Of a stretch of 64,000 nt of DNA, positions 1 through 34,727 are shown piece by piece. The notes beneath the pieces were generated by a model. That model ran no database searches. It was not told where the DNA came from and was given only the letters and a program-made list of their open reading frames with translations. Position 1 is the stretch's first letter; the number at the start of each line of letters is the position of its first letter. This DNA is from Bacilli bacterium (GTDB taxonomy: Bacteria; Bacillota_I; Bacilli_A; RF39; UBA660), in assembly GCA_017542065.1 (NCBI GenBank), contig JAFXXX010000007.1, forward strand, positions 2,182-66,181, given 5' to 3'. Both the position numbers and the translations under genes were made by a program.

Positions 1-490
1 TGATTGGGCAGAACATTACGAAAAAATGAGTGATTTTATTTTAAATTCATATAAAATATTAAAAGATAATAATATTGGTGAAGAAAAAGTATCTGAACAA
101 ATAGAAATGTTTTTAAATCAAACATTTAAATACCATAGCTGTGGAGCTGTAGGGTTAAATCAAATAACAGTAAAACCAAATGGTGATGTATGTATATGCC
201 AAGGTGATTCTAGATCACAAAATAATATTGTTGGAAACATTGTTACTGATAATATAATAGATATATTAAATAATCCTATAAATGATTATTGGCTTAATAT
301 GTATACAATAGATAAGGAAGAATGTAAGTATTGTCCTGCTATTTCAATATGTGGTGGTGGATGTCCATTGCAGGCTGAAGCATTATTTGGAAATAGAACT
401 GATATAGATGAGGCTTCTTGTATATATTATAAAAAATTATTTGAGTGGTTGATAAAACAATACTTTTATGTTACAATAGAAAACGATTAA
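1..490 (+). CDS. Radical SAM/SPASM-domain protein, C-terminal fragment. The 5' end lies outside the window and there is no in-frame stop upstream of position 26.
   Basis: The translation contains C-x(n)-G-x4-C followed by CKYCPAISICGGGCP, which is the C-x2-C-x5-C-x3-C SPASM auxiliary Fe-S cluster motif. The reading frame stays open back to nucleotide 2. Confidence 0.6.
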   Translation, partial: DWAEHYEKMSDFILNSYKILKDNNIGEEKVSEQIEMFLNQTFKYHSCGAVGLNQITVKPNGDVCICQGDSRSQNNIVGNIVTDNIIDILNNPINDYWLNMYTIDKEECKYCPAISICGGGCPLQAEALFGNRTDIDEASCIYYKKLFEWLIKQYFYVTIEND

Positions 491-510
491 GAAAGGAAGG
501 CCGATTTATC

Positions 511-678
511 ATGATTTTAGCTGATAAACTAAAAGCTTTAGGTAAGTTAAAAAAAGATAAACATGTTGTTGCAAATCAATGTACTTGCAGTAACTGTAAT
601 TGCAATTGCAATTGTAGAATGTCTTTTGATAACAACTTAGGAAATTTGGCAAAAAAATACAGAAAAAACCTAGCTTAA
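511..678 (+). CDS. Small Cys-rich peptide, 55 aa: MILADKLKALGKLKKDKHVVANQCTCSNCNCNCNCRMSFDNNLGNLAKKYRKNLA. Candidate RiPP precursor. Not present in the ORF track.
   Basis: ATG at 511 is preceded by GGAAGG at 495-500. The stop is 676-678 and a rho-independent terminator follows. The peptide has a Lys-rich amphipathic N-terminus and then a C-T-C-S-N-C-N-C-N-C-N-C core. It sits 20 nt downstream of the SPASM maturase fragment. Confidence 0.45.
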   Translation: MILADKLKALGKLKKDKHVVANQCTCSNCNCNCNCRMSFDNNLGNLAKKYRKNLA

Positions 679-684
679 TTATGA

Positions 685-709
685 AAAAGCTTATTCATTA
701 AGCTTTTTT
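685..709 (+). terminator. Rho-independent terminator
   Basis: aaaagctta-ttcat-taagctttt hairpin followed by a T-run. Confidence 0.7.
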
Positions 710-737
710 CTTTCTTCAGGGTATTAACAATATGAAT

Positions 738-763
738 AAAGCGTTGATTTACAACGCTTTTTT
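738..763 (+). terminator. Second rho-independent terminator
   Basis: aaagcgttg-attta-caacgcttt hairpin followed by TTTTG. Confidence 0.65.
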
Positions 764-787
764 GTTATCAAAAAATTAAAAAAAGTG

Positions 788-816
788 TTGCAAAATAAGA
801 AAAAATATTATACAAT
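788..816 (+). promoter_or_regulatory. Sigma-A type promoter for the tRNA operon
   Basis: TTGCAA (788-793), 17-nt spacer, TACAAT (811-816). Confidence 0.45.
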
Positions 817-845
817 TAAGTAGTCCAATGCAAATTGGCGCACGT

Positions 846-934
846 GCTTTAGTGGCGGAATTGGTAGACGCACAGGACTTAAAATCCTGCGTGAGTCAAA
901 TCACGTGCCGGTTCAAGTCCGGCCTGAAGCACCA
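846..934 (+). tRNA. tRNA-Leu(TAA), class II with long variable arm
   Basis: Cloverleaf read by eye. Anticodon loop is cuUAAaa. T-arm is GGTTCAAGTCC. Acceptor is gctttag/ctgaagc with an encoded CCA. Confidence 0.85.
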
Positions 935-940
935 CTTAAT

Positions 941-1033
941 GGAGAAGTACCCAAGTCTGGCTGAAGGGACCGGTCTTGAAAACCGGGAGGTCGGGTAACC
1001 GGCGCAGGGGTTCGAATCCCTTCTTCTCCGCCA
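941..1033 (+). tRNA. tRNA-Ser(TGA), class II
   Basis: Acceptor is ggagaag/cttctcc. Anticodon loop is cuUGAaa. Long variable arm. T-arm is GGTTCGAATCC. CCA is encoded. Confidence 0.85.
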
Positions 1034-1052
1034 TTTAAAATATTTGTTATAT

Positions 1053-1129
1053 CGCGGGGTGGAGCAGTCTGGAAGCTCGTCGGGCTCATAACCCGAAGGT
1101 CGTTGGTTCAAATCCAACCCCCGCAACCA
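1053..1129 (+). tRNA. Initiator tRNA-fMet(CAT)
   Basis: There is a C1xA72 mismatch (cgcgggg / ccccgca). Three consecutive G-C pairs sit in the anticodon stem (tcgggCTCATAAcccga). The anticodon is CAT. Confidence 0.85.
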
Positions 1130-1132
1130 ATT

Positions 1133-1208
1133 GGTTCCGTGGTGTAGTGGTTAACACGTCTGCCTGTCACGCAGAAGATCGAGGGTTCAAGTCCCTTCGG
1201 AACCGCCA
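1133..1208 (+). tRNA. tRNA-Asp(GTC)
   Basis: Acceptor is ggttccg/cggaacc. Anticodon loop is cuGTCac. CCA is encoded. Confidence 0.85.
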
Positions 1209-1219
1209 TTTTTTTATGT

Positions 1220-1295
1220 GGCTCTATAGCTCAGTAGGTAGAGCACAGGACTGAAAATCCTGGTGTCGGTGGTTCGATCCCACCTGGAGCCACCA
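1220..1295 (+). tRNA. tRNA-Phe(GAA)
   Basis: ggctctaTAGCTCAGTAGGTAGAGC with anticodon loop cuGAAaa. T-arm is GGTTCGATCC. CCA is encoded. Confidence 0.85.
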
Positions 1296-1305
1296 TTTTA
1301 ATAAT

Positions 1306-1328
1306 AAACTAGGGTATCCTAGTTTTTT
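1306..1328 (+). terminator. Terminator of the tRNA operon
   Basis: aaactagg-gtat-cctagttt hairpin followed by TTTTT. Confidence 0.7.
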
Positions 1329-1363
1329 ATTTGTTATGATATAATTTATTTAGAGGTATTTAT

Positions 1364-2122
1364 ATGGATAGTAAAGATTTTATTAAAATAAATAAAGATG
1401 GATGGAATACACTTATTAGAAATGGTAAACCATTTTCTAATACAATACTTCCTGAATATGGACCATTCTTAAAAAGAAATGAAGATGATATTAAGCTAAT
1501 GGATGTATCAGGAAAGAAAGTATTAGATTTTGGATGTGGTGAAGGAGAATCATTAGAGTATTTACTTAATAAAGGTGCTAGTGAAATATGGGGAATAGAT
1601 ATTTCAGAAGAGCAAATAAATAAAGCAAAAGAAAGATTCCCTATGTTTAGTGATAATTTTATTGTGTCTCCAATGGAAGATGATATAGATTTACCAAATA
1701 ATTATTTTGATTATATTATTTCTATATTTAGTATTGGTTATACATCAGATTTAGAAAAGACATTTAGTAATGCATATAAATTATTAAATGATAATGGTGA
1801 ACTAATAATAAGTTGGACTCACCCTTTCTATTACTGCCTTGATATAGAAGATAATAAAGTAGTAGTTAATAAATCATATTTTGATGAAAACAGTGAATTA
1901 ATTACTAAAGGACCAGATAAAGTTTCACTTGCTCAAAAGAATCTAATGATTTCAACATTTATTAATACTGGTATTAAAACAGGTTTTTATGTTGATACTA
2001 TGCTTGAAGAAGAAACTATTCCTAAAGAGGATGTAAATGGATATGTTAGTTCATTCTGGAGAAAAGAGAAAACTAGTAACTGTCCAAGTACTTTAATACT
2101 AAGATTTAAAAAACTAAAATAA
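1364..2122 (+). CDS. Class I SAM-dependent methyltransferase (small-molecule type)
   Basis: Motif I VLDFGCGEG, followed by acidic post-I and post-II motifs. 252 aa. Confidence 0.7.
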   Translation: MDSKDFIKINKDGWNTLIRNGKPFSNTILPEYGPFLKRNEDDIKLMDVSGKKVLDFGCGEGESLEYLLNKGASEIWGIDISEEQINKAKERFPMFSDNFIVSPMEDDIDLPNNYFDYIISIFSIGYTSDLEKTFSNAYKLLNDNGELIISWTHPFYYCLDIEDNKVVVNKSYFDENSELITKGPDKVSLAQKNLMISTFINTGIKTGFYVDTMLEEETIPKEDVNGYVSSFWRKEKTSNCPSTLILRFKKLK

Positions 2123-2199
2123 GTAGTAATACTTATTTTTTCTTGCTTTATTATCAATATAGTATATAATATATAGCATATTTCAAAGGGGATGAAATT

Positions 2200-2700
2200 A
2201 TGCCAACTGAACAAGAAATACATAATATGTTTATACCTAATATTGAGAATTCCATGAGAGATGTAAGAATGGCTAGAATGCTTTTTATAACTAAGAATGG
2301 TAAATTACATGCTGGAATCGCAGAACAATACATTGATAAAATGTCATATTATGTTAGTTTTTGCAGAGAAGATGCAAAAACATGGTCTGAAGATTTAAGA
2401 ACAATGGTATACTGTACAGGACATGAAGAAGTTAATGATTCTGATGTGGAAGGTTTCCTAAAAGCATTTGAACTTGCAGGTCAAATAATGGAAGCAAATT
2501 CAAAGGGCGTAAGCAGATTGAAAATAAGAAAGATTTTAGAGTCTCAAAATATTGATGATGAGAGTTTAAAAAATCTATCAGTTGTTTTAGATAGATATGC
2601 TGAATATGGTCTTCCTGCTGAAGTATTTACTATTGGTGATGCTTTAATAAAAACCCTTAAAGCTAAGAAAGATAAAGAAAAACAAGAAAAGCAGTCATAA
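2200..2700 (+). CDS. Hypothetical protein, 166 aa
   Basis: Long ORF with a terminator hairpin at 2690-2712. No recognisable motif. Confidence 0.5.
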   Translation: MPTEQEIHNMFIPNIENSMRDVRMARMLFITKNGKLHAGIAEQYIDKMSYYVSFCREDAKTWSEDLRTMVYCTGHEEVNDSDVEGFLKAFELAGQIMEANSKGVSRLKIRKILESQNIDDESLKNLSVVLDRYAEYGLPAEVFTIGDALIKTLKAKKDKEKQEKQS

Positions 2701-2768
2701 GACTGTTTTTTGTTTGACAATAAAGCTTTAAAAATGATAAAATATACTCACTTTTAGGAGAAATAAAC

Positions 2769-3377
2769 ATGGGAAATAATACAAGAATATTTGTTAGTTT
2801 TGAAGGTGTTGTAGCAAATAATACAAAATTTAGAAAAGAAATAATTGAATCATTACCTTCAGAAGTTCGTGTGGCATATAAAAGTGGCATTGCAAGGAAT
2901 GAACAAGATTATTTAGAAAAAATAAATTGGTATAAAGAATATAAGAGATTAATAAACAAGGATTCTATGAGAGTTTTAGTTGGCTGTAGAGAAATGATCC
3001 CTGTAAGTAGATGTATATGTGAAGCTGAAAAGAAAGCAATTCAAAGAATTCTAGAAGAAAAGGGATATACTGATGAATTATATTCTATTATGTTAAAGAA
3101 AAGTGAATTTGAATTAACTGATAAAGAAGCTCCTGAACAACGTATTGAAGATATTTCACAAGGTGTGTTTGCTGTTACAGAAAATGCATTAGTTCATACA
3201 GATAAAAAAGTGTTGAGCAGTTGGTATCTTCATGGTGGAAAAGCATTTCAATTTGATCCATATGGTAAAGAAGATATCAGCACTTTAGAATCATCTGATG
3301 GGAAATCTGTTGTTAAGGTAGTTAAAACTCTTAGAATGGTTCCTATGGCGTTAGGTATATATAAAAGCAAAAAGTAG
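2769..3377 (+). CDS. Hypothetical protein, 202 aa
   Basis: Long ORF. A terminator hairpin (agtaggca/tgcctact followed by T-run) lies at 3370-3395. No recognisable motif. Confidence 0.5.
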   Translation: MGNNTRIFVSFEGVVANNTKFRKEIIESLPSEVRVAYKSGIARNEQDYLEKINWYKEYKRLINKDSMRVLVGCREMIPVSRCICEAEKKAIQRILEEKGYTDELYSIMLKKSEFELTDKEAPEQRIEDISQGVFAVTENALVHTDKKVLSSWYLHGGKAFQFDPYGKEDISTLESSDGKSVVKVVKTLRMVPMALGIYKSKK

Positions 3378-3447
3378 GCATTGCCTACTTTTTTATTGTT
3401 AAAAACCTGTTTTTGTTATATAATAATATATGTTTTAAAAAAACGGG

Positions 3448-5409
3448 GTGGTAATTTTGAAACTATTAGATAGTGAAATTAAGTGTGAAAAAGAATATCT
3501 TTCTACTGTGGAAAGTATTTTAAATGACGAAATTACTGAAATGACTGATGACGTTCAAAAGAAGATGTCAGAAGTTAATGATATTAAAAGACAAATATAT
3601 GAAGAAAAGAATGATGATTCTTTATATGATCAAGATGCTATTAGAAATGTATATGCTGTTGAATCTAGAGTAGATCAAATTAATAAAAAGATTGATAAGA
3701 TTGAATTATATAAAAGAGCAGCTTCTATACCATATTTTGGAAAGATTACATGTGATTTTAATAGTGATAAAGAAAATGTTTATATCGGTATAACATCTGT
3801 TGAAAAAGATAATAATTTCTATGTATATGATTGGAGAAGTCCTATTGCATCTTTATTCTATAATTATGAACTTGGTGAAGCTTCATATAAGATAGATACT
3901 AAAGAGATTAAATGTAATATTGATAGAAAAATACAATTTAAAATTAAAGATGGAGAACTTGTTAGATGTTTTGATTCATCTATTAATATAGATGATGAAT
4001 ATCTTCAAGAGATGTTATCTAATACTAATGATAAAAAGTTAACTAATATTATTAGTACTATTCAAAAAGAACAAAACTTAATTATTAGAAATGTCGATGA
4101 TAAAAATTTATTAGTTCAAGGAACTGCTGGTTCTGGTAAAACAGTAGTGGCTCTTCATAGAATTGCTTATCTTCTTTATAGAGATGCTAAACTTGAATCT
4201 AAGAATATATTAATTATTTCACCAAATGAAATATTCTCTGATTATATATCAGATGTTCTTCCTGAACTTGGCGAAAAGAATACTAAATGTTTTACTTTAA
4301 CTAGCTATTTAGAGAGTTATTTAAATTCATATAAGATTGAACCTTATGTTAAATATATTTCTAGGATAGAAGATGGAGACTCTAAAGATATATCAAAGAA
4401 ATTAAATGTTTCTAAAGAGTTAAAAAGATTTGTCAAGAAGTATTATGGTTCATTTAACTTTACTAGAAAATTTACTATAGGAACAGAAACATTCTATGCC
4501 AGAGATATTAATTATATGTTTAATGAAAAATATAAGAGATTATGCATTAAAGATAGATTTAGAAGAATAGCAGAATTTATCTGTGATAACCTAGGTGTTA
4601 AGAATAAAGAATTCTATAACAAAGTTAAAAACTATTTAATTAGTAATAGTAATGTAAGTTTAGATGTATATGAAATATATAAAGAATTCTTAGAATCTCA
4701 AAACTTATCTTCATTCTTAATAGATAATGAAGTTATTAAATATGAAGATGTAATGAATATACTTAATTTATATTTCTATGTTATTGGAGTTAAGAAAGAT
4801 TTATCTTTAAAACATGTTGTTATAGATGAAGCTCAAGATTATACATTAAGTGAAATAGATGTTATTAAGAAGATGTTCCCAGAAGCATCATTTACTATAC
4901 TTGGTGATGATAATCAAAATATTAACTCATTTGATAAGAGTAAAATAATTGATTACAGTGAATTATTTAAATCATATAAATATATTGAATTAAATAAAAC
5001 ATATAGATCTACTGAGAAGATAGTAGAGTATTCAAATAAAATTCTTGGTCTTGATAATGTATGTGCTGTTAGAAATACTTTAGGAGACGATGTAGAAGTA
5101 ATTAAACTATCTATTGATAACTTAAAGAAATGTATTAAGAATTCTAAATATAAGAAAACTGCGATTATTACAGATAATATGACTAAAGCAAGAAACCTAT
5201 ATAAAGAATTAAATGATAAAGATATTCAGTTAATAGATTTTGATACAGATACATTTGATAAGAATATATTTATTATTCCTTCTTATTTATCTAAAGGATT
5301 AGAGTTTGAATATGTAATTATATACAAAGAAGATGAATATAAGAATAAGAATTTATATTATGTATCATGTACTAGAGCGCAACAAAAATTAACAATATTA
5401 GAAAAATAA
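3448..5409 (+). CDS. helD: HelD-like DNA helicase IV, a UvrD/Rep superfamily 1 helicase with a HelD-type N-terminal domain. The start is GTG at 3448 or TTG at 3457.
   Basis: Walker A GTAGSGKT and Walker B VVIDEAQDY are present, with a C-terminal SF1 motif (YVSCTRAQQKL). The N-terminal VYDWRSPIASLFYNYE motif is typical of HelD. Confidence 0.7.
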   Translation: MVILKLLDSEIKCEKEYLSTVESILNDEITEMTDDVQKKMSEVNDIKRQIYEEKNDDSLYDQDAIRNVYAVESRVDQINKKIDKIELYKRAASIPYFGKITCDFNSDKENVYIGITSVEKDNNFYVYDWRSPIASLFYNYELGEASYKIDTKEIKCNIDRKIQFKIKDGELVRCFDSSINIDDEYLQEMLSNTNDKKLTNIISTIQKEQNLIIRNVDDKNLLVQGTAGSGKTVVALHRIAYLLYRDAKLESKNILIISPNEIFSDYISDVLPELGEKNTKCFTLTSYLESYLNSYKIEPYVKYISRIEDGDSKDISKKLNVSKELKRFVKKYYGSFNFTRKFTIGTETFYARDINYMFNEKYKRLCIKDRFRRIAEFICDNLGVKNKEFYNKVKNYLISNSNVSLDVYEIYKEFLESQNLSSFLIDNEVIKYEDVMNILNLYFYVIGVKKDLSLKHVVIDEAQDYTLSEIDVIKKMFPEASFTILGDDNQNINSFDKSKIIDYSELFKSYKYIELNKTYRSTEKIVEYSNKILGLDNVCAVRNTLGDDVEVIKLSIDNLKKCIKNSKYKKTAIITDNMTKARNLYKELNDKDIQLIDFDTDTFDKNIFIIPSYLSKGLEFEYVIIYKEDEYKNKNLYYVSCTRAQQKLTILEK

Positions 5410-5410
5410 A

Positions 5411-5439
5411 AGATAGACTATTGTCTATCTCTTTTTTTT
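5411..5439. terminator. Bidirectional terminator between helD (+) and the 5418-5807 gene (-)
   Basis: agatagac-tatt-gtctatct hairpin with a T-run of 8 on the plus strand and an A-run upstream. Confidence 0.65.
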
Positions 5440-5807
5440 GGTATTAAATATCTTTTTGCTTTTGCTATTATAGATTCTTTAGGAGCAAATCTTGGATTTT
5501 TAATATACAGTGGATTACCATTTTTTTCCTTAAACAAAATATTAGAATAAGTATAATCTAATCCATGTTTAGTAATATTGATTGCTATATCAAAACCATC
5601 AGTTCTAGCACTAATCATAGTTACAGATCCACGTTCTAATCCAAATATATTGCATTCTACTTGTTCTTCTTTTCTAGCAATATATAAACAATCATTTTTA
5701 TTATCATAGTATAAACTACATTTTAAACTAGCTAAAGCATTCTTTATATCGAAATCATCTTTGATTTTACGCATTATAATTTGCTCTTTGTTTTCTTTTA
5801 AACCCAT
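5418..5807 (-). CDS. Hypothetical protein, about 129 aa. A TTG start at 5825 is the alternative.
   Basis: ATG at 5807 is preceded by AAGGTGA. No recognisable domain. Confidence 0.45.
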   Translation of the reverse strand: MGLKENKEQIIMRKIKDDFDIKNALASLKCSLYYDNKNDCLYIARKEEQVECNIFGLERGSVTMISARTDGFDIAINITKHGLDYTYSNILFKEKNGNPLYIKNPRFAPKESIIAKAKRYLIPKKRDRQ

Positions 5808-5908
5808 ACCGTCACCTTGATACAATTTATTATATCAAATTTTATAAAAAACACTATATTTTTTTTCTAAAATATAGTATACTTATTTATAGAAAGGAGA
5901 TAGGGAAT

Positions 5909-6343
5909 ATGTATTCAAATGGTTATTATAATGGTTACGGAACTACTTCTGCTTATACTTCAGGAGCTGCTGCTGCTACTGGTTTAGCTGCAGGACTTGT
6001 AATTTTCTACATTTTAGAATATATTCTTCTATTTGCTTGGATTATTCTTTATTTCGTCGGAATGTGGAAAACATTCGTTAAGATGGGTCATAAAGGATAC
6101 TTTGCATTAATCGAAGGATATAATGAAGTATTATTATTAGAAGCTGCTAACATGCCACTTTGGAACTACTTCATGATGATGATCCCAATTTATGGTATCG
6201 TTGTTATGATTAAACGTGGTATCGTAATCGCTAATAAATTTGGTAAGTCTACAGCAATCGGAGTTTTACTTGGTATTCCTGTAACTACACCAATAGCATT
6301 TATGATTCTTGGATTCTCTAAAGATGCTAAATATAAAGGCTAA
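5909..6343 (+). CDS. Small membrane protein, DUF5684-like
   Basis: Gly/Ala/Tyr-rich N-terminus followed by three or four hydrophobic helices. The GMWK(T)F..G.KG....IEGYNE signature resembles DUF5684 membrane proteins; this is from memory. Confidence 0.5.
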   Translation: MYSNGYYNGYGTTSAYTSGAAAATGLAAGLVIFYILEYILLFAWIILYFVGMWKTFVKMGHKGYFALIEGYNEVLLLEAANMPLWNYFMMMIPIYGIVVMIKRGIVIANKFGKSTAIGVLLGIPVTTPIAFMILGFSKDAKYKG

Positions 6344-6403
6344 TTTAATTAGTCTTTTTATTTTACTTGTAATTCCTACTAAAATGGTATAGAATATATT
6401 TGG

Positions 6404-6805
6404 GTGATGAAAATGAGAATATCTTCGAAAGGAAAGTATGCTTTAGAATTAATGGTTTATTTAGGTAGAAACTATGGAAAAGGTAGTATTTCTATTAGTG
6501 AAATAACTGGTGATTCTTTTTCTATTAAGTATATGGAAAAGATAGCAGGTTTACTTAATAAAGCAGGATTAATTAAAAGTGAAAGAGGAGTAGAAGGTGG
6601 TTATAAGTTAGTTAAAGATCCATCTGAATATTCTATATTTGAAATACTTAATGCTGTTGAAGATAATCTAGCACCTATTAAGTGTGTATTAGATGATGAT
6701 GCATGCAAAATAAAAATTACTTGTAAGACTTATCCTATATGGGATGAGTTATATGAAATAGAAGCTAAGTTTCTAAAAGATAAGAAACTTACAGATATTC
6801 TATAG
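6404..6805 (+). CDS. Rrf2-family transcriptional regulator, IscR-like
   Basis: The N-terminal wHTH (KGKYALELMVYL...ISISEI) is typical of Rrf2. The C-terminus carries three Cys spaced C-x6-C-x5-C (KCVLDDDACKIKITC), like the IscR Fe-S ligands. It lies directly upstream of sufCBD. Confidence 0.75.
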   Translation: MMKMRISSKGKYALELMVYLGRNYGKGSISISEITGDSFSIKYMEKIAGLLNKAGLIKSERGVEGGYKLVKDPSEYSIFEILNAVEDNLAPIKCVLDDDACKIKITCKTYPIWDELYEIEAKFLKDKKLTDIL

Positions 6806-6813
6806 GAGGTTAT

Positions 6814-7551
6814 ATGGAATTACTTAAAATTGATAATATTCATACTATTGCATCAGATGATGAAGATATGAATATATTAAAGGGACTTAATTTAACTATT
6901 AATACAGGTGAAATACATGTTATTATGGGTCCTAATGGAGCAGGTAAATCTACACTTGCTAATACTATATTAAATAGTCCTAAATATATAGTTAAAGAGG
7001 GTAATATATATTTTGAAGGACAAAATATAAATGATTTAAAAACTAACGAAAGAGCAAACTTAGGTATATTTATGTCATTTCAATCTCCAATCGAAATACC
7101 TGGTATATCAGTATCTAATTTTATTAAAAGTGCTCTTAATACTAAAGGAAAGGTTCAATTATATGAATATATAAAAGAACTAGAATCTACTATGGATGAG
7201 TTAAGTATTGATAAAGATAAAGAACATAGAGATTTAAATGTTGGTTTTTCTGGTGGAGAAAAGAAAAAGAATGAAATATTACAAATGTTAATGTTAAAAC
7301 CTAAATTAGCTATACTAGATGAAATAGATTCAGGTCTAGATATAGATGCTATTAAAGTAGTTGCTAAAGGTATTAACATGTATAAGAATGATGATAATGC
7401 AATACTTATGATTACTCATTCATCTAGAATACTAGAAGAACTAGATAACTATATAGTTCACGTTTTAGTAAACGGTAAAATAGTTGATACTGGTGATAAA
7501 TCTTTAGTTAAAGAAATAGAAGAAAACGGTTATAAAAAGTATTTAGGATAG
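6814..7551 (+). CDS. sufC: Fe-S cluster assembly ATPase SufC
   Basis: Walker A GPNGAGKST, ABC signature FSGGEKKK, Walker B ILDEIDSGLD. Confidence 0.9.
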   Translation: MELLKIDNIHTIASDDEDMNILKGLNLTINTGEIHVIMGPNGAGKSTLANTILNSPKYIVKEGNIYFEGQNINDLKTNERANLGIFMSFQSPIEIPGISVSNFIKSALNTKGKVQLYEYIKELESTMDELSIDKDKEHRDLNVGFSGGEKKKNEILQMLMLKPKLAILDEIDSGLDIDAIKVVAKGINMYKNDDNAILMITHSSRILEELDNYIVHVLVNGKIVDTGDKSLVKEIEENGYKKYLG

Positions 7552-7560
7552 GAGGTAACT

Positions 7561-8955
7561 ATGAAAACACGTGTTGAAGAAGCAAACAAAAACATATATG
7601 ACATAGTTACTGAAAACGAAACTGAGAAGACCGTTTTAGGTTTAACAGAGGAATCTATTAGAGAAATATCTAAATATAAAAATGAACCTGATTGGATCTT
7701 AGATATTAGATTAAAAGCTTTAAAGTGTTTTAATGAAGCTAAAGATCCTACATGGGGACCAGATTTATCAGATTTAGATTTATCTAAGATAAATACATAT
7801 GTTAAACCAAAAACTAATATGTCAGATAAATGGGAAGATGTACCAGAAAATATCAAAGATATATTTGATAAACTAGGTATTCCAGAAGCTGAAAAGAAGT
7901 CTTTATCTGGAGCATCTGCTCAGTTTGATAGTGAAGTAGTATATCATAATGTTAATCATAAATTAGAAGGAACAGGAGCTATTTATTTAGACTTTGATAG
8001 TGCTATTAAAAAGTATCCTGAGCTAATAAAGGAATACTTTACTAAAGCAGTACCACTTAATGATCATAAATATATATCTTTACATTACGCATTATTTTCT
8101 GGTGGTTCTTTTGTTTATATTCCAAAAGGAGTAAAACTAGAGTTTCCTCTTCAATCATATTTTAGACTTAATTCAAAGGGTAGTGGCCAGTTTGAACATA
8201 CCCTAATAATAGTAGATGAAGATGCTTCTTTAGAGTTTATTGAAGGATGTTCTGCTCCTGGATATAACTCAAATAATCTTCATGCAGGATGCGTTGAATT
8301 ATTTGTTAAGAAGAATGGTTTTCTTAGATTTTCTACTATTGAAAACTGGTCTAAGAATATGTATAACTTAAACACTAAGAAATGCTTTGTAGAAGAAAAT
8401 GGAAAAATAGAATGGGTAATGGGTTCATTTGGTTCTAAGATATCTATGCTATATCCAATGAATATATTAAATGGTAGAGGAGCTCAATGTGAATTTACTG
8501 GTATATCATTTGCAGGTAAAGGACAAAACTTAGATACAGGTATTAAAGTAATTCATAATGCTCCAAATACATCTTGTACAGTTAATTCTAAATCAATTTC
8601 AAAAGATGGAGGAATATGTACATTTAGATCTAATGTATTTGTAAGTAAGAATGCTAAAAATACTAAAGTAGTATTTGATTGTGCTTCACTAATGCTTGAT
8701 TCAGAATCTAGAAGTGATACTATTCCAGTAGATAGAATAGAGAATAATGATACAATTTATTCACATGAAGCATCTATTGGCAAGATAGGCGAAGAAGAAA
8801 TCTTCTATATAATGTCTAGAGGATTCTCTGAAGATGAAGCAAAGTCTTTAATAGTTAGAGGTTTTGCAGAACCAATATCAAAGAGTTTTCCTGTGGAATA
8901 TGCAGTAGAAATGAATAGATTAATAGATCTAGAGTTAGAGGGGGCGATAGGATGA
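7561..8955 (+). CDS. sufB: Fe-S cluster assembly protein SufB
   Basis: 464 aa. Conserved SufB core (GAIYLDFDSA...FVYIPKGV...HNAPNTSCT). Confidence 0.9.
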   Translation: MKTRVEEANKNIYDIVTENETEKTVLGLTEESIREISKYKNEPDWILDIRLKALKCFNEAKDPTWGPDLSDLDLSKINTYVKPKTNMSDKWEDVPENIKDIFDKLGIPEAEKKSLSGASAQFDSEVVYHNVNHKLEGTGAIYLDFDSAIKKYPELIKEYFTKAVPLNDHKYISLHYALFSGGSFVYIPKGVKLEFPLQSYFRLNSKGSGQFEHTLIIVDEDASLEFIEGCSAPGYNSNNLHAGCVELFVKKNGFLRFSTIENWSKNMYNLNTKKCFVEENGKIEWVMGSFGSKISMLYPMNILNGRGAQCEFTGISFAGKGQNLDTGIKVIHNAPNTSCTVNSKSISKDGGICTFRSNVFVSKNAKNTKVVFDCASLMLDSESRSDTIPVDRIENNDTIYSHEASIGKIGEEEIFYIMSRGFSEDEAKSLIVRGFAEPISKSFPVEYAVEMNRLIDLELEGAIG

Positions 8956-9929
8956 AATACATATTAAATGAGACTCCTATTAGGACTACTAATAGTTTTA
9001 GAATGAATAATATTACATTAGATTTAGAATTACCAACTTCCACTTCGTTTAAATCATTTAATGGTTATGAAGGTATTAGATATGAATATGATAAAGAAAT
9101 AAAAAGTCCTCTAGGATTTACTACTAAAGGGACTTATGCTTACATAGATATAAATAAGAGTAAAGATATTACTCTTGAATGTAATTCAGGTATTATCTGT
9201 AATACTATTATTAATGTAGATAAGAATATAGATACTACTATTACAATTAAATATACTGGGGATAACTATAATATTCAAAATATAATAGTTAATGCTTCAG
9301 AGAATAGTAACATAACAATGAATTATATTAATATGTCTAATGCTATTTCCTTAATCAGTTTTGAAAACAAAGTAGAGGCAAATAGTACGGTAACACATAA
9401 TCTATATGACTTAAGTGGAAACATAAGAGTATATAAATATAATAGTGATAATGCTGGTGACAATTCATCTAGTTATTTAAATAATATTTATTTAGCTGAT
9501 AATCAAGAGATGCTTGATATGAACTATTATATTAGTCATAGAGGTAAATCATCTAATAGTAATATAAATGTAGTTGGTTTACTTGATGGAGAAGCTAAGA
9601 AGTCATTTAAAGGAACAATAGACTTTATTGAAGGATGCTCTAAATCAGTGGGAAAAGAAAAAGAAGAATCTATATGCTTATCTGATAAAGCAGTATCATC
9701 TTCTATGCCAGTTTTATTATGTCATGAAGAAGACGTTGAAGGTGCTCATGGAGTAGCTAACGGAAAAATAGATGAAGATACTTTATTCTATATTGAGAGT
9801 AGAGGTCTAAATAAAGAAGAATCTATAAACTTGATACTTCAATCTAAATTTAATAAATATATTGAATTAATTAAAGATGAAAGTATTAAAGAAGAAATTT
9901 GGAATTATATAAATAAAAGAGGTCAATAA
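8952..9929 (+). CDS. sufD: SufD-like Fe-S assembly protein (SufB/SufD family)
   Basis: The C-terminal beta-helix region is similar to SufB/D (FKGTIDFIEGCSKS...HGVANGKIDEDTLFYIESRG). The start overlaps the sufB stop. Confidence 0.75.
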   Translation: MKYILNETPIRTTNSFRMNNITLDLELPTSTSFKSFNGYEGIRYEYDKEIKSPLGFTTKGTYAYIDINKSKDITLECNSGIICNTIINVDKNIDTTITIKYTGDNYNIQNIIVNASENSNITMNYINMSNAISLISFENKVEANSTVTHNLYDLSGNIRVYKYNSDNAGDNSSSYLNNIYLADNQEMLDMNYYISHRGKSSNSNINVVGLLDGEAKKSFKGTIDFIEGCSKSVGKEKEESICLSDKAVSSSMPVLLCHEEDVEGAHGVANGKIDEDTLFYIESRGLNKEESINLILQSKFNKYIELIKDESIKEEIWNYINKRGQ

Positions 9930-9939
9930 TGACCTCTTT

Positions 9940-10578
9940 TTAAAACGTTAATTTAATTCTTTTACCTTTAATTTCGATAAAACCTTCTTCTTTTAAATAA
10001 CTTAGTTCTCTACTCATAGCAGATCTATCAACTCCAAGATAATCTGCTAGAGCCATGAAACTAAATGGTAAATAAATGTTATTTGAACCGCTTTTAGTTT
10101 TAGCAATAGAGAAGTATTCTAGTAATCTATTTCTAATAGTCTTCTTTGTTAGTATTTGTATTCTTTCATTCTTTTCGTTTAATTTATCGTTAATAATTAA
10201 GAATAAATTTTTAATGAATTGGTTGTAATAACCTTTTTCATTTTCACCAAATTCTTGTATTTGTTCTAAATCAAAGAATACTATTTTAGTTTCTTCTTTA
10301 ACTAATACTTCATATTCAGAATCTTGTACGTAAATAGTTTTAATACTTAAAATATCATCTTCATATAACTCATCTATTATTAAACTAGTTCCATTAAGAT
10401 TCTTTTTTATGATTTGTACATATCCACTAATAATAATACCAAGAGAGTTTCTATCCATTAACATCTTAGATAAATCTTCCCCCTTATTATAAGACATAAT
10501 ATGAGTATGGAATGCTTGAAATAACTTATATTTATTCTTTTCAGAAATTTTATCAAAAGGTTTTACCATGTTCGTCAA
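9940..10578 (-). CDS. Crp/Fnr-family transcriptional regulator
   Basis: N-terminal cNMP-binding-like beta-barrel and C-terminal HTH (LADYLGVDRSAMSRELSYLKEEG). Divergent from nrdD. Confidence 0.75.
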   Translation of the reverse strand: MTNMVKPFDKISEKNKYKLFQAFHTHIMSYNKGEDLSKMLMDRNSLGIIISGYVQIIKKNLNGTSLIIDELYEDDILSIKTIYVQDSEYEVLVKEETKIVFFDLEQIQEFGENEKGYYNQFIKNLFLIINDKLNEKNERIQILTKKTIRNRLLEYFSIAKTKSGSNNIYLPFSFMALADYLGVDRSAMSRELSYLKEEGFIEIKGKRIKLTF

Positions 10579-10680
10579 CTCCTATGTAAAATTTTATCAT
10601 ATTTTGCATTTTGTTGCAACTGCAACATATCTACTAAATATGAAATATGGTAAAATAATTATAATGTGGGGAGGATAACT

Positions 10681-13807: not shown

Positions 13808-13883
13808 GGGCCCTTAGCTCAGCTGGTAGAGCATCTCGCTTGCACCGAGAAGGTCAGGAGTTCGAACCCCCTAGGGTCCACCA
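13808..13883 (+). tRNA. tRNA-Ala(TGC)
   Basis: The acceptor gggccct/agggtcc carries the G3:U70 Ala identity pair. Anticodon loop is cuUGCac. CCA is encoded. Confidence 0.85.
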
Positions 13884-31574: not shown

Positions 31575-31775
31575 TATAAAAACGAGGAAGAAGAATAGTA
31601 AAATAAATAAATACGTAGAGAGCTTATGGTTGGTGAAAATAAGTTATTATATTTATTTGAAGAAACTTTGGAGTTTATTCGCTGATTAGCGTTACAATCA
31701 AAAAGAGCATAGAAATATCTATGAAGTAGGGTGGTACCGCTTAATTAGTCCCTACATCGTAGGTATTTTTTTCGT
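31575..31775 (+). ncRNA. T-box riboswitch leader (tRNA-Glu sensing) controlling gltX
   Basis: Conserved T-box sequence AGGGTGGTACCGC at 31728-31740. The gtaggg/ccctac antiterminator competes with the ccctac-atc-gtagg terminator, which is followed by TATTTTTTT. The candidate specifier is GAA then A at 31672-31675, in a ttgaaGAAAc context after the distal ggttggtgaaaat platform. Confidence 0.75.
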
Positions 31776-31793: not shown

Positions 31794-33452
31794 ATGACAA
31801 ATAAAGAATATGCAGATTTTCTTTTACCAGGTGTTGAGCATACTTGGGAAGATTATGAAAAGATGTACCCTGAAAGAGATTTACCTGAGGGAGCAATAGT
31901 TACTAGATATGCACCTAGTCCTACTGGATTTGTTCATATAGGGGCTTTACTAGTATCATTTCTTTGTTCTAGATTTGCTAAACAAACAGGAGGAGTAAAT
32001 TTCTTAAGAATAGAAGATACTGATCAAGAAAGAAGTATTGAAAATGGTGTATCATCTATTATTAATAGTTTAAAAGACTTTGGAGTAACATTTGATGAAG
32101 GACCCATTTCTGAAACTGAGGAAAATGGTAATTATGGTCCTTATACTCAAACAAAAAGAAAAGAAATATATCAAGCATTTGCTAAAAAATTAATTGAAGA
32201 AGATAAAGCTTATGCATCTTTCTTATCTAAAGAAGAACTTGAAGAAATAAGAGCTAGACAATCTGCGTCTAAAGAAAGACTAGGTATTTATGGTAGATAT
32301 GCTAAAGATAGAAACCTATCGAAAGAAGAGGTTATTCAAAGAATTAATAATGGTGAAAGTTATATTATTAGAATTAAATCACCAGGTAATTTCTTTAATA
32401 AGATAAAAGTTAATGACTTAATTAAAGGTACTTTAGAAATGCCTGAAAATGATATAGATGAAGTTATCATTAAGAGTGATGGTATTCCTACATATCACTT
32501 TGCTCATGCAGTAGATGATCATTTAATGAGAACTACACATGTTATTAGAGGTGATGAATGGTTATCATCTTTACCAAAACATATTCAATTATTTGAAATG
32601 TTAGGATTTAAACCAGTTAAGTATGCACATATTGCACCACTTACTAAAAATGATAATGGAACTATTAGAAAATTAAGTAAAAGAAAAGATCCAGAAGCAT
32701 CAGTAGATTACTTTACAAATGCTGGAGTTCCTAAAGAAGCTATTATGCTTTATTTAGCTACTGTAGCAAATTCTAACTTTGAAGGTTGGTTAGATCAAAA
32801 CCCAAATGGTAATCTAGATGATTTTAAATTTGAATTTAAGAAATGTTCTGCATCTTCTGGTTCATTATTTGATTTACCTAAGTTATATAATATTTCTAAA
32901 AACTATATTAGTAGACTTACTAAAGAAGAAGTATATAATGGTGCACTAGAATATGCTTCTAGATTTGATTCAGAATTATGTGAGATATTAGAAAAATATC
33001 CTGAATATTCAAAAGCAATATTTAATATTGAAAGAGAACAAAAGAAACCAAGAAAGGACTATGAAAAATATTCTGATGTTAAAGGTCAAATTTGGTATAT
33101 GTATGATGAATTGTTTGCTAAATATAAAGACGAAAATGGATATGATTATCAATCTATAACAGATAAAGATGAAATAAGAAATATTATTAATACATATATT
33201 GATAAATATTATGATGAAAATGATGATAAAGATACTTGGTTTAGTAAGATTCAAAGTCTTTGTGATGAACTGGGTTACGCATCAAACATGAAAGATTATA
33301 AAGAAAATCCTGATAACTATAAAGGAAATGTTGCAGATGTTTCTACTGTTATTAGAGTATCTTTAACAACTAGATCTATGACACCAGATTTATATGAATT
33401 ATTAAAGTTAATTGGTAAAGAAAAAATCAAAGAAAGATTTAACTTAATCTAA
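31794..33452 (+). CDS. gltX: Glutamate--tRNA ligase
   Basis: HIGH-like PSPTGFVHIGALL. KMSKS-like KLSKRK. Preceded by a T-box leader with a Glu specifier. Confidence 0.85.
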   Translation: MTNKEYADFLLPGVEHTWEDYEKMYPERDLPEGAIVTRYAPSPTGFVHIGALLVSFLCSRFAKQTGGVNFLRIEDTDQERSIENGVSSIINSLKDFGVTFDEGPISETEENGNYGPYTQTKRKEIYQAFAKKLIEEDKAYASFLSKEELEEIRARQSASKERLGIYGRYAKDRNLSKEEVIQRINNGESYIIRIKSPGNFFNKIKVNDLIKGTLEMPENDIDEVIIKSDGIPTYHFAHAVDDHLMRTTHVIRGDEWLSSLPKHIQLFEMLGFKPVKYAHIAPLTKNDNGTIRKLSKRKDPEASVDYFTNAGVPKEAIMLYLATVANSNFEGWLDQNPNGNLDDFKFEFKKCSASSGSLFDLPKLYNISKNYISRLTKEEVYNGALEYASRFDSELCEILEKYPEYSKAIFNIEREQKKPRKDYEKYSDVKGQIWYMYDELFAKYKDENGYDYQSITDKDEIRNIINTYIDKYYDENDDKDTWFSKIQSLCDELGYASNMKDYKENPDNYKGNVADVSTVIRVSLTTRSMTPDLYELLKLIGKEKIKERFNLI

Positions 33453-34569: not shown

Positions 34570-34643
34570 GGACCTATAGCCAAGTGGTAAGGCACGGGAC
34601 TGCAACTCCCTGATCGTTGGTTCAAATCCGACTAGGTCCTCCA
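34570..34643 (+). tRNA. tRNA-Cys(GCA)
   Basis: ggacctaTAGCCAAGTGGTAAGGC. Anticodon loop is cuGCAac. T-arm is GGTTCAAATCC. CCA is encoded. Confidence 0.85.
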
Positions 34644-34652
34644 TGTTATTTT

Positions 34653-34727
34653 GCAGGTGTAGTACAACGGTTAGTACGTGGCCTTGCCAAGGCTGAGACG
34701 GGAGTTCGATTCTCCTCACTTGCTCCA
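34653..34727 (+). tRNA. tRNA-Gly(GCC)
   Basis: Acceptor is gcaggtg/cacttgc. Anticodon loop is uuGCCaa. T-arm is GGAGTTCGATTCTCC. CCA is encoded. Confidence 0.85.

Follow-up and report, generated by a model that had tools for sequence, protein, structure and literature searches.

A radical-SAM peptide cassette of probable thioether type in uncultured gut Bacilli

What is the function of a short, Cys-rich open reading frame (ORF) that directly follows a truncated radical-SAM (S-adenosylmethionine) gene, and is its product processed by that enzyme? This question is raised by the left end of a 64,000-nucleotide stretch of contig JAFXXX010000007.1 (assembly GCA_017542065.1; "the window" below), which comes from a member of the Bacilli that lives in the gut, has a low GC content and has not been cultured. 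The first-pass annotation of the window had described positions 1-765 as a truncated locus resembling those for peptides that are made on the ribosome and modified after translation (RiPPs). This region forms the 3' end of an operon with three genes, which encode a 251-residue methyltransferase (MT251), a 440-residue maturase and a 55-residue precursor peptide (Table 1). The operon is ended by two intrinsic terminators and is flanked by two tRNA gene clusters. Most likely, it is an uncharacterised RiPP cassette of the thioether type, similar to those of ranthipeptides or sactipeptides, with an additional N-methylation step. The best overall explanation, a RiPP-type cassette in which the maturase makes one or more intramolecular thioethers and MT251 N-methylates the product, has in our estimate a probability of about 0.6.

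The part of the operon that lies to the left of the window was taken from contig ena:ERZ27256878:k141_1426186 (locus L001), which is 100% identical to window positions 1-10600 without gaps, and on which window position 1 corresponds to position 9491. In the 5' to 3' direction, L001 carries an S1-domain gene, a tRNA gene cluster (7318-7740), a terminator-like hairpin with promoter-like elements, and then the genes for MT251, the maturase and the peptide; the tRNA cluster, the hairpin and the promoter-like elements were read straight from the sequence. The gap between the MT251 and maturase genes is 4 nucleotides (nt). The N-terminus of the maturase and an upstream partner gene, which had been presumed to lie outside the window, are both present on this contig.

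Within the window, frame 2 is open from the left edge, and its translation ends in ...CKYCPAISICGGGCPLQ...ASCIYY...IEND, which can also be displayed as ...ECKYCPAISICGGGCPLQAEALFGNRTDIDEASCIYYKK...IEND. The SPASM motif C-x2-C-x5-C-x3-C is located near the end of this ORF, as had been noticed, and the region scores above the cut-offs of Pfam PF13186 (29.4 bits versus 21.5) and TIGR04085 (52 versus 27). The radical-SAM core, for which a leftward extension had been advised, is found as CNLACKYC (a CxxxCxxC motif) at residues 92-99 of the complete enzyme; this part of the protein is encoded outside the window and matches PF04055 with 68.7 bits (cut-off 29.5). The full-length protein also contains a Fer4_12 domain. 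The seven SPASM cysteines, C325, C344, C386, C389, C395, C399 and C418, are invariant in 20 homologues with identities down to 38%.

The peptide gene starts 20 nt past the stop codon of the maturase gene behind a Shine-Dalgarno-like sequence, and its translation agrees with that given in the first-pass annotation in every residue, including the six Cys within twelve residues of the core, CTCSNCNCNCNC. Among the ORFs of 25-120 codons, taken from all six frames of the 64-kb window, it alone has six Cys within 14 residues. The peptide had been called unannotated, which is only partly true: gene calls for the ORF exist on 16 contigs in public collections, and a relative is listed as a hypothetical protein in NCBI records of metagenome-assembled genomes (MAGs). 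A longer, 77-residue version starting from an in-frame GTG at position 445 was rejected because in the relatives the Met is closely preceded by a stop codon. The peptide is strongly basic. The core is in the middle of the molecule, between a Lys-rich N-terminal part and a conserved, basic C-terminal tail of 20 residues.

Homologues of the peptide form 34 clusters in a search of 5.8 billion protein clusters, and a profile search of 1.84 billion representatives returned only 19 matches at E values up to 0.001; the family is small and narrow. About 35 clusters have the invariant core ANQCxC...NC in common. In an alignment of 29 members, A21, N22, Q23, C24, T25, C26, N30 and C31 are invariant, S27, N28, C29, N32 and C33 are nearly invariant, and the flanks are variable. 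In more distant members, the T25 position may be occupied by Ala, Met, Leu or Val, S27 may be replaced by Asn and N30 by Thr. In nearly every clade, the third position ahead of the first Cys is taken by a small residue, usually Ala. When 20 distinct loci are compared, the 11-codon block ANQCTCSNCNC has a synonymous diversity (pS) of 0.64, which is saturated, and a nonsynonymous diversity (pN) of 0. The pN/pS ratio is 0.36 for the whole peptide, 0.53 for the N-terminal region and 0.37 for the C-terminal region. These values indicate that the peptide is encoded by a real gene, which is under strong purifying selection.

The number of Asn-Cys units varies among the species, giving 4, 5 or 6 Cys, at window positions 580-615 and at the same site in loci L012-L023. 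The gene copies differ by in-frame steps of 6 nt in a TGY-AAY repeat, and the window copy is the longest seen.

The association of the peptide with the maturase was examined in a maturase-anchored scan, which covered one genome per species and gave 80 loci. A Cys-rich peptide gene is located directly downstream of the maturase gene at every species-level locus in which the maturase is 47-79% identical to that of the window (13 loci). In clade A (L012-L019 and L023; maturase identity 54-79%), which is made up of uncultured Bacilli MAGs from the guts of humans, rabbits, chickens and others, a peptide with the ANQCTCSNCNC motif follows the maturase directly and MT251 precedes it directly at all loci. 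In clade B (L020, L021 and L034; 47-49%), the order is an RlmA-like gene, the maturase and a peptide with the motif ANCxxCxCSNC, without MT251. In clade C (L022, L024, L026, L027 and L037; 37-40%), a RimI-like GNAT replaces the methyltransferase, the peptide contains ...YASVCNSCACGGGTGSCNTTCKGCKDK..., and more unknown genes follow. Distant relatives from the Candidate Phyla Radiation and DPANN have other Cys-rich peptides, which are encoded upstream. The reverse search, made with a degenerate DNA motif of the core, gave 20 metagenome loci, 18 of which have the maturase gene upstream as far as the contig reaches. In the other two (L100 and L107), the maturase ORF is precisely deleted, and MT251 is directly followed by an intact peptide gene. 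The linkage and the co-conservation make it very probable that the peptide is the substrate of the maturase.

Several further observations concern rearrangements and additions at these loci. The deletion sites are at L100 3860-4000 (OIEH01001370.1) and L107 930-1010 (VOFK01001813.1), in comparison with L110, on two independent contigs. The junction lies in an imperfect microhomology of about 34 nt that is common to the starts of the maturase (ATGAAATTATCAAATTAT) and peptide (ATGAAATTTCCAAACTAT) genes. Another apparent fusion is protein P0158, in which the N-terminus of MT251 is joined to the peptide. A transposase-like ORF of 428-429 residues is inserted into the maturase gene at L017 (5454-6740, minus strand) and L019 (4824-6113, minus strand). 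The L017 insertion is in the 3' end of the maturase gene, and the peptide gene has been moved 1.6 kb away; the L019 insertion truncates the maturase after about 284 codons. The sister clade with the RimI-like GNAT (L092 at 4538-4999, 6571-7554 and 7767-9470, and also L024, L026, L027 and L037), in which the peptide contains ...ASVCNSCACGGGTGSCNTTCKGCKDK..., adds a protein of 313-327 residues that starts with MIIDTHSHIGN and has an amidohydrolase-like HxH motif. L092 and L022 also encode a 567-residue protein. Neither the 313-327-residue protein nor the 567-residue protein has an NCBIfam match.

The arrangement in the window, with two terminators and then five tRNA genes after a run of Cys and Asn codons, would also suit a leader peptide that controls the downstream tRNA operon by attenuation; alternatively, the small ORF might have arisen by chance. 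Both possibilities are extremely improbable. The peptide is kept in the clade-A loci L012-L019 and L023, which have no tRNA genes in the locus and differ in their downstream genes. The regions that flank the Cys run are also under purifying selection (pN/pS 0.37-0.53), and the linkage is to the upstream enzyme and not to the downstream genes. The leader peptide and the chance ORF are thus contradicted by both the conservation and the substitution pattern. The terminators themselves were described correctly in the first-pass annotation: two hairpins, each with a U-run, follow the peptide gene. The first of them was missed by the consensus scan because its stem has fewer than three G-C pairs. 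A terminator-like match at 594-617 was discarded, as it is merely a palindromic coding repeat, TGTAATTGCAATTGCAATTGT.

A different role for the peptide is suggested by the gene that precedes the cassette in most relatives. All clade-A loci have a gene for an RlmA-family Zn-ribbon methyltransferase of 280-300 residues, which is located upstream of MT251 and overlaps it. The clade-A proteins score 132-138 bits with NF008300 (cut-off 303) and match E. coli RlmA (1P91) with an E value of 4.6e-17. RlmA itself is the N1-methyltransferase of G745/G748 in 23S rRNA. Examples of such genes, many of which overlap the cassette, are L012 2397-3254, L096 3396-4253, L094 4198-5004 and L035 662-1510. The peptide might then be a small basic housekeeping protein that binds metal or an Fe-S cluster through metallothionein-like CxC motifs and serves as a partner or cofactor of the operon enzymes, including the RlmA-family methyltransferase, in their action on RNA or the ribosome. 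The RlmA-family gene stands directly before the cassette in 10 clade-A species loci, in clade B and in L035, often with overlapping stop and start codons. The neighbourhood is of a housekeeping kind, with tRNA clusters, RNase Y, RecA, metG and gyrA; an exporter, a protease and an immunity gene are all lacking at the locus; the peptide is strongly basic with CxC motifs, and it is intact in the two variants that lost the radical-SAM gene. Nevertheless, this role is improbable for the following reasons: 1) the window genome has no RlmA-like gene upstream of the cassette, where the tRNA cluster takes its place, or elsewhere in the 64 kb; 2) the maturase is built like a peptide maturase, including an RRE-like domain for peptide binding; 3) MT251 resembles a peptide N-terminal methyltransferase and not an RNA enzyme; 4) the RlmA-like proteins of all relatives span 132-232 bits, which is below the RlmA cut-off of 303, and genes may stay adjacent through inheritance without being functionally linked.

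The predicted structure of the maturase supports its assignment as a peptide-modifying enzyme. RRE-dependent RiPP maturases carry a RiPP recognition element (RRE), an N-terminal winged-helix peptide-recognition domain of three strands plus three helices. The AlphaFold2 model of the maturase (predicted local distance difference test (pLDDT) 84.9, predicted template modelling score 0.83) contains three N-terminal strands (residues 7-11, 16-21 and 28-31) and three helices (32-39, 45-53 and 63-77), with a pLDDT of about 81-95 over residues 1-80. The N-terminal domain is thus predicted to have the β3-α3 layout of an RRE. The model can be aligned over its full length with TigE (8VPO), the top Foldseek match, and also with CteB (5WGG/5WHY), anSME, ChlB and SuiB; TigE and CteB are enzymes that contain an RRE. 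By sequence, the closest solved relative is CteB (E value 2e-31), and the seven SPASM cysteines of the two enzymes align one-to-one. The alignment shows no equivalent of the extra ligand Cys of anSME, an enzyme with a fully Cys-ligated auxiliary cluster I.

Three Cys are the only protein ligands of this kind on auxiliary cluster I of CteB, and a Cys of the substrate binds to the iron that is left free (PMC8326336). Six positions close to the active site, F112, F152, T186, S210, H363 and Q364 in CteB, are used to sort sactisynthases from ranthisynthases (PMC10288494). The equivalent residues of the maturase, as we read the alignment, are F100, Y143, I174, S198, Q345 and G346: two are identical, one is a conservative replacement (Y143 for Phe) and three are non-conservative (I174, Q345 and G346). 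With this pattern, the maturase may be either a sactisynthase or a ranthisynthase.

The highest score of the maturase with a curated profile, over its full length, is 186.7 bits for the FibroRumin maturase (TIGR04136; cut-off 400), followed by QhpD (TIGR03906; 162.7, cut-off 453), PapB (NF047865; 161.8, cut-off 340), the SCIFF maturase (TIGR03974; 141.3, cut-off 425), anSME (TIGR03942; 138.4, cut-off 349) and CcpM (TIGR04068; 129.4, cut-off 500). The top four are all formers of thioethers on Cys-containing peptides. These scores and the model indicate that the maturase is a typical RRE-radical-SAM-SPASM peptide maturase, the nearest profiles of which are thioether formers, yet it falls outside every curated family tested. 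We consider the chances that the crosslinks are thioethers to be somewhat better than even.

The same peptide might alternatively be the substrate for a different reaction: formation of formylglycine from Cys or Ser, epimerisation, carbon-carbon or carbon-oxygen crosslinking of side chains, or an undescribed modification of the Asn, Thr or Ser residues that alternate with Cys. This is a minor but real possibility. Among the fold matches, the cyclopropyl synthase TigE ranks first, and anSME, ChlB and SuiB match as well; no cut-off of a curated thioether family is attained; four of the six CteB positions near the active site differ in the maturase (PMC10288494); and, besides Cys, the core has invariant Asn, Gln, Thr and Ser residues. 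On the other hand, the four best sequence profiles all belong to Cys-thioether formers, Cys is the most enriched of the invariant core residues, and the two specific candidates among the fold matches lack their hallmarks. Cyclopropyl synthases (TvgB/TigE) have a GYW motif, the Tyr of which ligates auxiliary cluster I, and act on peptides with Val/Ile repeats (PMC10878394). The 440-residue protein has no GYW, and the core contains neither Val nor Ile, so that a cyclopropyl synthase, similar to TigE in overall fold, was rejected. The fold is also shared with anSME, and a sulfatase maturase was one of the outcomes that had been named in advance as fatal to the RiPP-like reading. It was rejected likewise: the score is far below the cut-off, there are seven and not eight SPASM cysteines, and a sulfatase gene is found neither within 10 kb upstream nor among the genes listed to both sides of the peptide gene of L001, up to a distance of 10 kb.

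Comparison with known thioether systems helps to place the cassette. The acceptor residue is bound to the Cys sulfur through a carbon other than the alpha carbon in ranthipeptides and through the alpha carbon in sactipeptides. In its working principle, the cassette is closest to the SCIFF system of Clostridia, the ranthipeptide thermocellin (CteA-CteB). Both have an RRE-radical-SAM-SPASM enzyme with seven SPASM cysteines, a Cys-rich peptide of about 50 residues, a minimal two-gene core without a protease or exporter and a housekeeping neighbourhood, and both are distributed throughout a lineage rather than sporadically. However, the maturase is far below the SCIFF cut-off, and the peptide has no SCIFF match. 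Its core, C-x-C-x-x-C-x-C-x-C with alternating Asn, is located mid-peptide and is followed by the conserved 20-residue tail, and the cassette co-encodes one or two methyltransferases. In profile scores, the uncharacterised FibroRumin system comes nearest to the cassette; it provides the best curated model for the enzyme and, with the target profile TIGR04135, the only curated match for the window peptide (14.2 bits, E value 0.032, cut-off 45). Both scores are far under their cut-offs, and the cassette is a member of neither the SCIFF nor the FibroRumin system.

PapB (freyrasin) and QhpD link Cys to the β or γ carbon of Asp or Glu, and each makes multiple thioethers in one short Cys-rich segment. 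They provide the third and second best profiles of the maturase. Nevertheless, the cassette core contains no C-x3-D motifs, Asp or Glu, and no genes for a quinohemoprotein amine dehydrogenase are found nearby, the neighbours being the methyltransferase, the tRNA genes and the S1-domain gene; with both scores under the cut-offs, the maturase belongs to neither family. NxxcB of Streptococcus orisratti offers another parallel, as the cassette core has the overlapping N-x-x-C units N28-C31, N30-C33 and N32-C35. In NxxcA, the Cys is linked to the Asn β carbon, which is a precedent for Asn as a thioether acceptor (PMC8326336). Unlike the cassette, in which several overlapping motifs vary in number among species, NxxcA has a single ring and its locus is regulated by quorum sensing; no NxxcB model is among the significant matches of the maturase. 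The CcpM/CLI_3235 system of Cys-rich bacteriocins was rejected: the maturase is far below the CcpM cut-off, and the window peptide does not match the peptide profile TIGR04065, with which one relative scores 20.1 bits (cut-off 26). More generally, none of the eleven family peptides tested (the window peptide and ten diverse relatives) attains the cut-off of a curated peptide family. A phage origin was also rejected, the core motif not being present in the viral contig collection.

The third component, MT251, is conserved in all clade-A loci. Its homologues make up a very narrow family of 54 clusters, and those listed are all at least 37% identical (the search table gives 39% to the query, and the alignment 37-44% for the most distant members). 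This distribution indicates that MT251 is a dedicated partner of the cassette. The best match of its AlphaFold2 model (pLDDT 91.5) is CypM, with a TM-score of 0.79-0.82 and an E value of 1.6e-18, followed by CcbJ, TylM1, DesVI, CalS10 and NmbA, all of which are amine N-methyltransferases. The sequence matches, ToxA, TylM1 and DesVI, agree with this. CypM is the N-terminal N,N-dimethyltransferase of the linaridin cypemycin, which begins with a dimethylated Ala, and an invariant Ala precedes the core of the cassette peptide. The likeness to CypM is, however, confined to the fold, with 13-14% sequence identity, and linaridins have no radical-SAM enzyme. Taken together, the small residue or Ala before the core, the dimethylated Ala of cypemycin and the clade-C GNAT, which resembles alpha-amine acetyltransferases, lead us to infer that the cleaved core, starting at Ala21, may be capped at its N-terminus. 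This is a lead and not a result.

By combining all the available information, it is possible to propose how the cassette might work. The RRE-like N-terminal domain of the maturase would bind the Lys-rich N-terminal part of the peptide. The radical-SAM cluster would then cleave SAM, and the resulting 5'-deoxyadenosyl radical would take a hydrogen from a Thr, Ser or Asn of the NQCTCSNCNC core. A core Cys thiolate, bound to the free iron of auxiliary cluster I (which would have three Cys ligands, as in CteB), would capture the substrate radical and form an intramolecular thioether. This step could be repeated along the C-x-C and N-x-x-C ladder, up to six times in the window copy. An unlinked protease would remove the N-terminal part, after which MT251 would N-methylate an amine of the product. 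The likeliest target is the alpha-amine of the conserved Ala before the core, a tentative assignment.

Several points weigh against this proposal. The maturase scores below half of the cut-off for every curated thioether family. SPASM enzymes of the same fold, of which TigE is the closest match, also make carbon-carbon links, cyclopropanes and formylglycine. As no protease or exporter gene is found nearby, removal of the leader and export are assumptions. Core peptides do not usually have a conserved C-terminal tail of 20 residues, and two metagenome contigs retain an intact peptide gene without the maturase. In addition, MT251 is similar to CypM at the level of the fold only.

A more far-reaching version is that the cassette makes a cell-internal, N-capped and multiply crosslinked micro-protein rather than an exported antibiotic, and would be the Bacilli counterpart of the unexplained SCIFF peptides. 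In that case, the ancestral fusion to an RlmA-family rRNA methyltransferase gene might point to a function at the ribosome, or to one as a redox or metal cofactor. In addition, or instead, the core might carry an undescribed ladder of overlapping crosslinks between Cys and Asn, Thr or Ser, in which the number of rings follows the (NC)n count. Such a version is rather unlikely.

Table 1. Positions of the cassette features in the window and on the extending contig L001
Feature	Sequence	Position	Strand	Basis or remarks
MT251, 251-residue class I SAM methyltransferase	L001	7898-8653		gene call on L001
Complete 440-residue radical-SAM gene	L001	8658-9980		contig identical to window
Peptide gene	L001	10001-10168		gene call on L001
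3' third of maturase gene (last 162 codons and stop)	window	2-490	+	translation; SPASM profiles; identical contig
SPASM auxiliary-cluster region, seven conserved Cys codons	window	140-421	+	Cys invariance among homologues; CteB alignment
SPASM Cys codons	window	140-142, 197-199, 323-325, 332-334, 350-352, 362-364, 419-421	+	
C-x2-C-x5-C-x3-C motif	window	323-364		
Maturase stop codon	window	488-490		
Shine-Dalgarno-like AGGAAGG	window	494-500	+	read from sequence; 10 nt before ATG
55-codon precursor-peptide gene (MILADKLKALGKLKKDKHVVANQCTCSNCNCNCNCRMSFDNNLGNLAKKYRKNLA)	window	511-678	+	ORF (ATG at 511); public gene calls; homologues; pN/pS
Core-coding segment ANQCTCSNCNCNCNC	window	571-615	+	holds (TGY AAY)n repeat, copy number species-dependent
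First intrinsic-terminator-like hairpin and U-run	window	683-716	+	AT-rich 11-bp stem 683-709; -10.2 kcal/mol, z -3.8
Second intrinsic-terminator-like hairpin and T-run	window	738-766	+	9-bp stem 738-760; -10.7 kcal/mol, z -3.3; terminator scan
Five tRNA genes (Leu, Ser, Met, Asp, Phe)	window	846-1295		

The first-pass annotation had advised a search for peptidase and transporter genes near the cassette. Of the genes listed for the 10 kb before and the 10 kb after the peptide gene of L001, none has a peptidase or transporter domain; an ABC ATPase about 6 kb downstream of the peptide gene is part of an apparent Suf operon (ABC_tran and SufBD domains). The bracketing of the cassette by tRNA genes is specific to this genome, its relatives having none at the locus. 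Directly after the downstream tRNA cluster lies a second class I methyltransferase gene (window 1364-2122, 252 residues). It was rejected as a member of the cassette, being unrelated to MT251 (E value 1.9) and not kept downstream in the relatives. It is followed by two ORFs, at 2200-2700 (166 residues) and 2769-3377 (202 residues), with no Pfam match on record. Elsewhere in the window, a T-box leader (117 bits) at 31576-31756 lies upstream of a 552-residue ORF (31794-33452), and further tRNA genes are found at 13808-13880 and 34570-34724.

The RiPP-like reading of the locus is thus supported by the extended operon and by the conservation of the small ORF, which at all loci of related species comes directly after the gene of the enzyme. 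Of the two outcomes named in advance as fatal to this reading, neither was observed. To the earlier description can be added the preceding methyltransferase, the RlmA-family gene of most relatives, the lack of a protease or exporter gene and the position outside all curated families. The paper library searched contained nothing on FibroRumin, on the combination of radical SAM, RiPP and RlmA, or on the string NQCTCSNC. Uncharacterised radical-SAM RiPP loci number many thousands, of which the cassette is one, and we see no sign in it of a departure from the known logic of the class. It is distinct in its precursor motif, in the co-encoded CypM-like and ancestrally RlmA-like methyltransferases, and in the mid-peptide position of the core before a conserved basic tail.

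If the proposed explanation is true, uncultured gut Bacilli have a compact, lineage-wide radical-SAM peptide system that lies outside the curated families and the searchable papers. Its precursor is highly constrained (ANQCxC(S/N)NC(N/T)C), and its CypM-like N-methyltransferase is swapped in relatives for a RimI-like acetyltransferase. The size of only three genes suits heterologous expression, which could reveal new thioether topologies. Alongside SCIFF, the cassette could help to explain why some anaerobic Firmicutes keep modified Cys-rich peptides that have no exporter.

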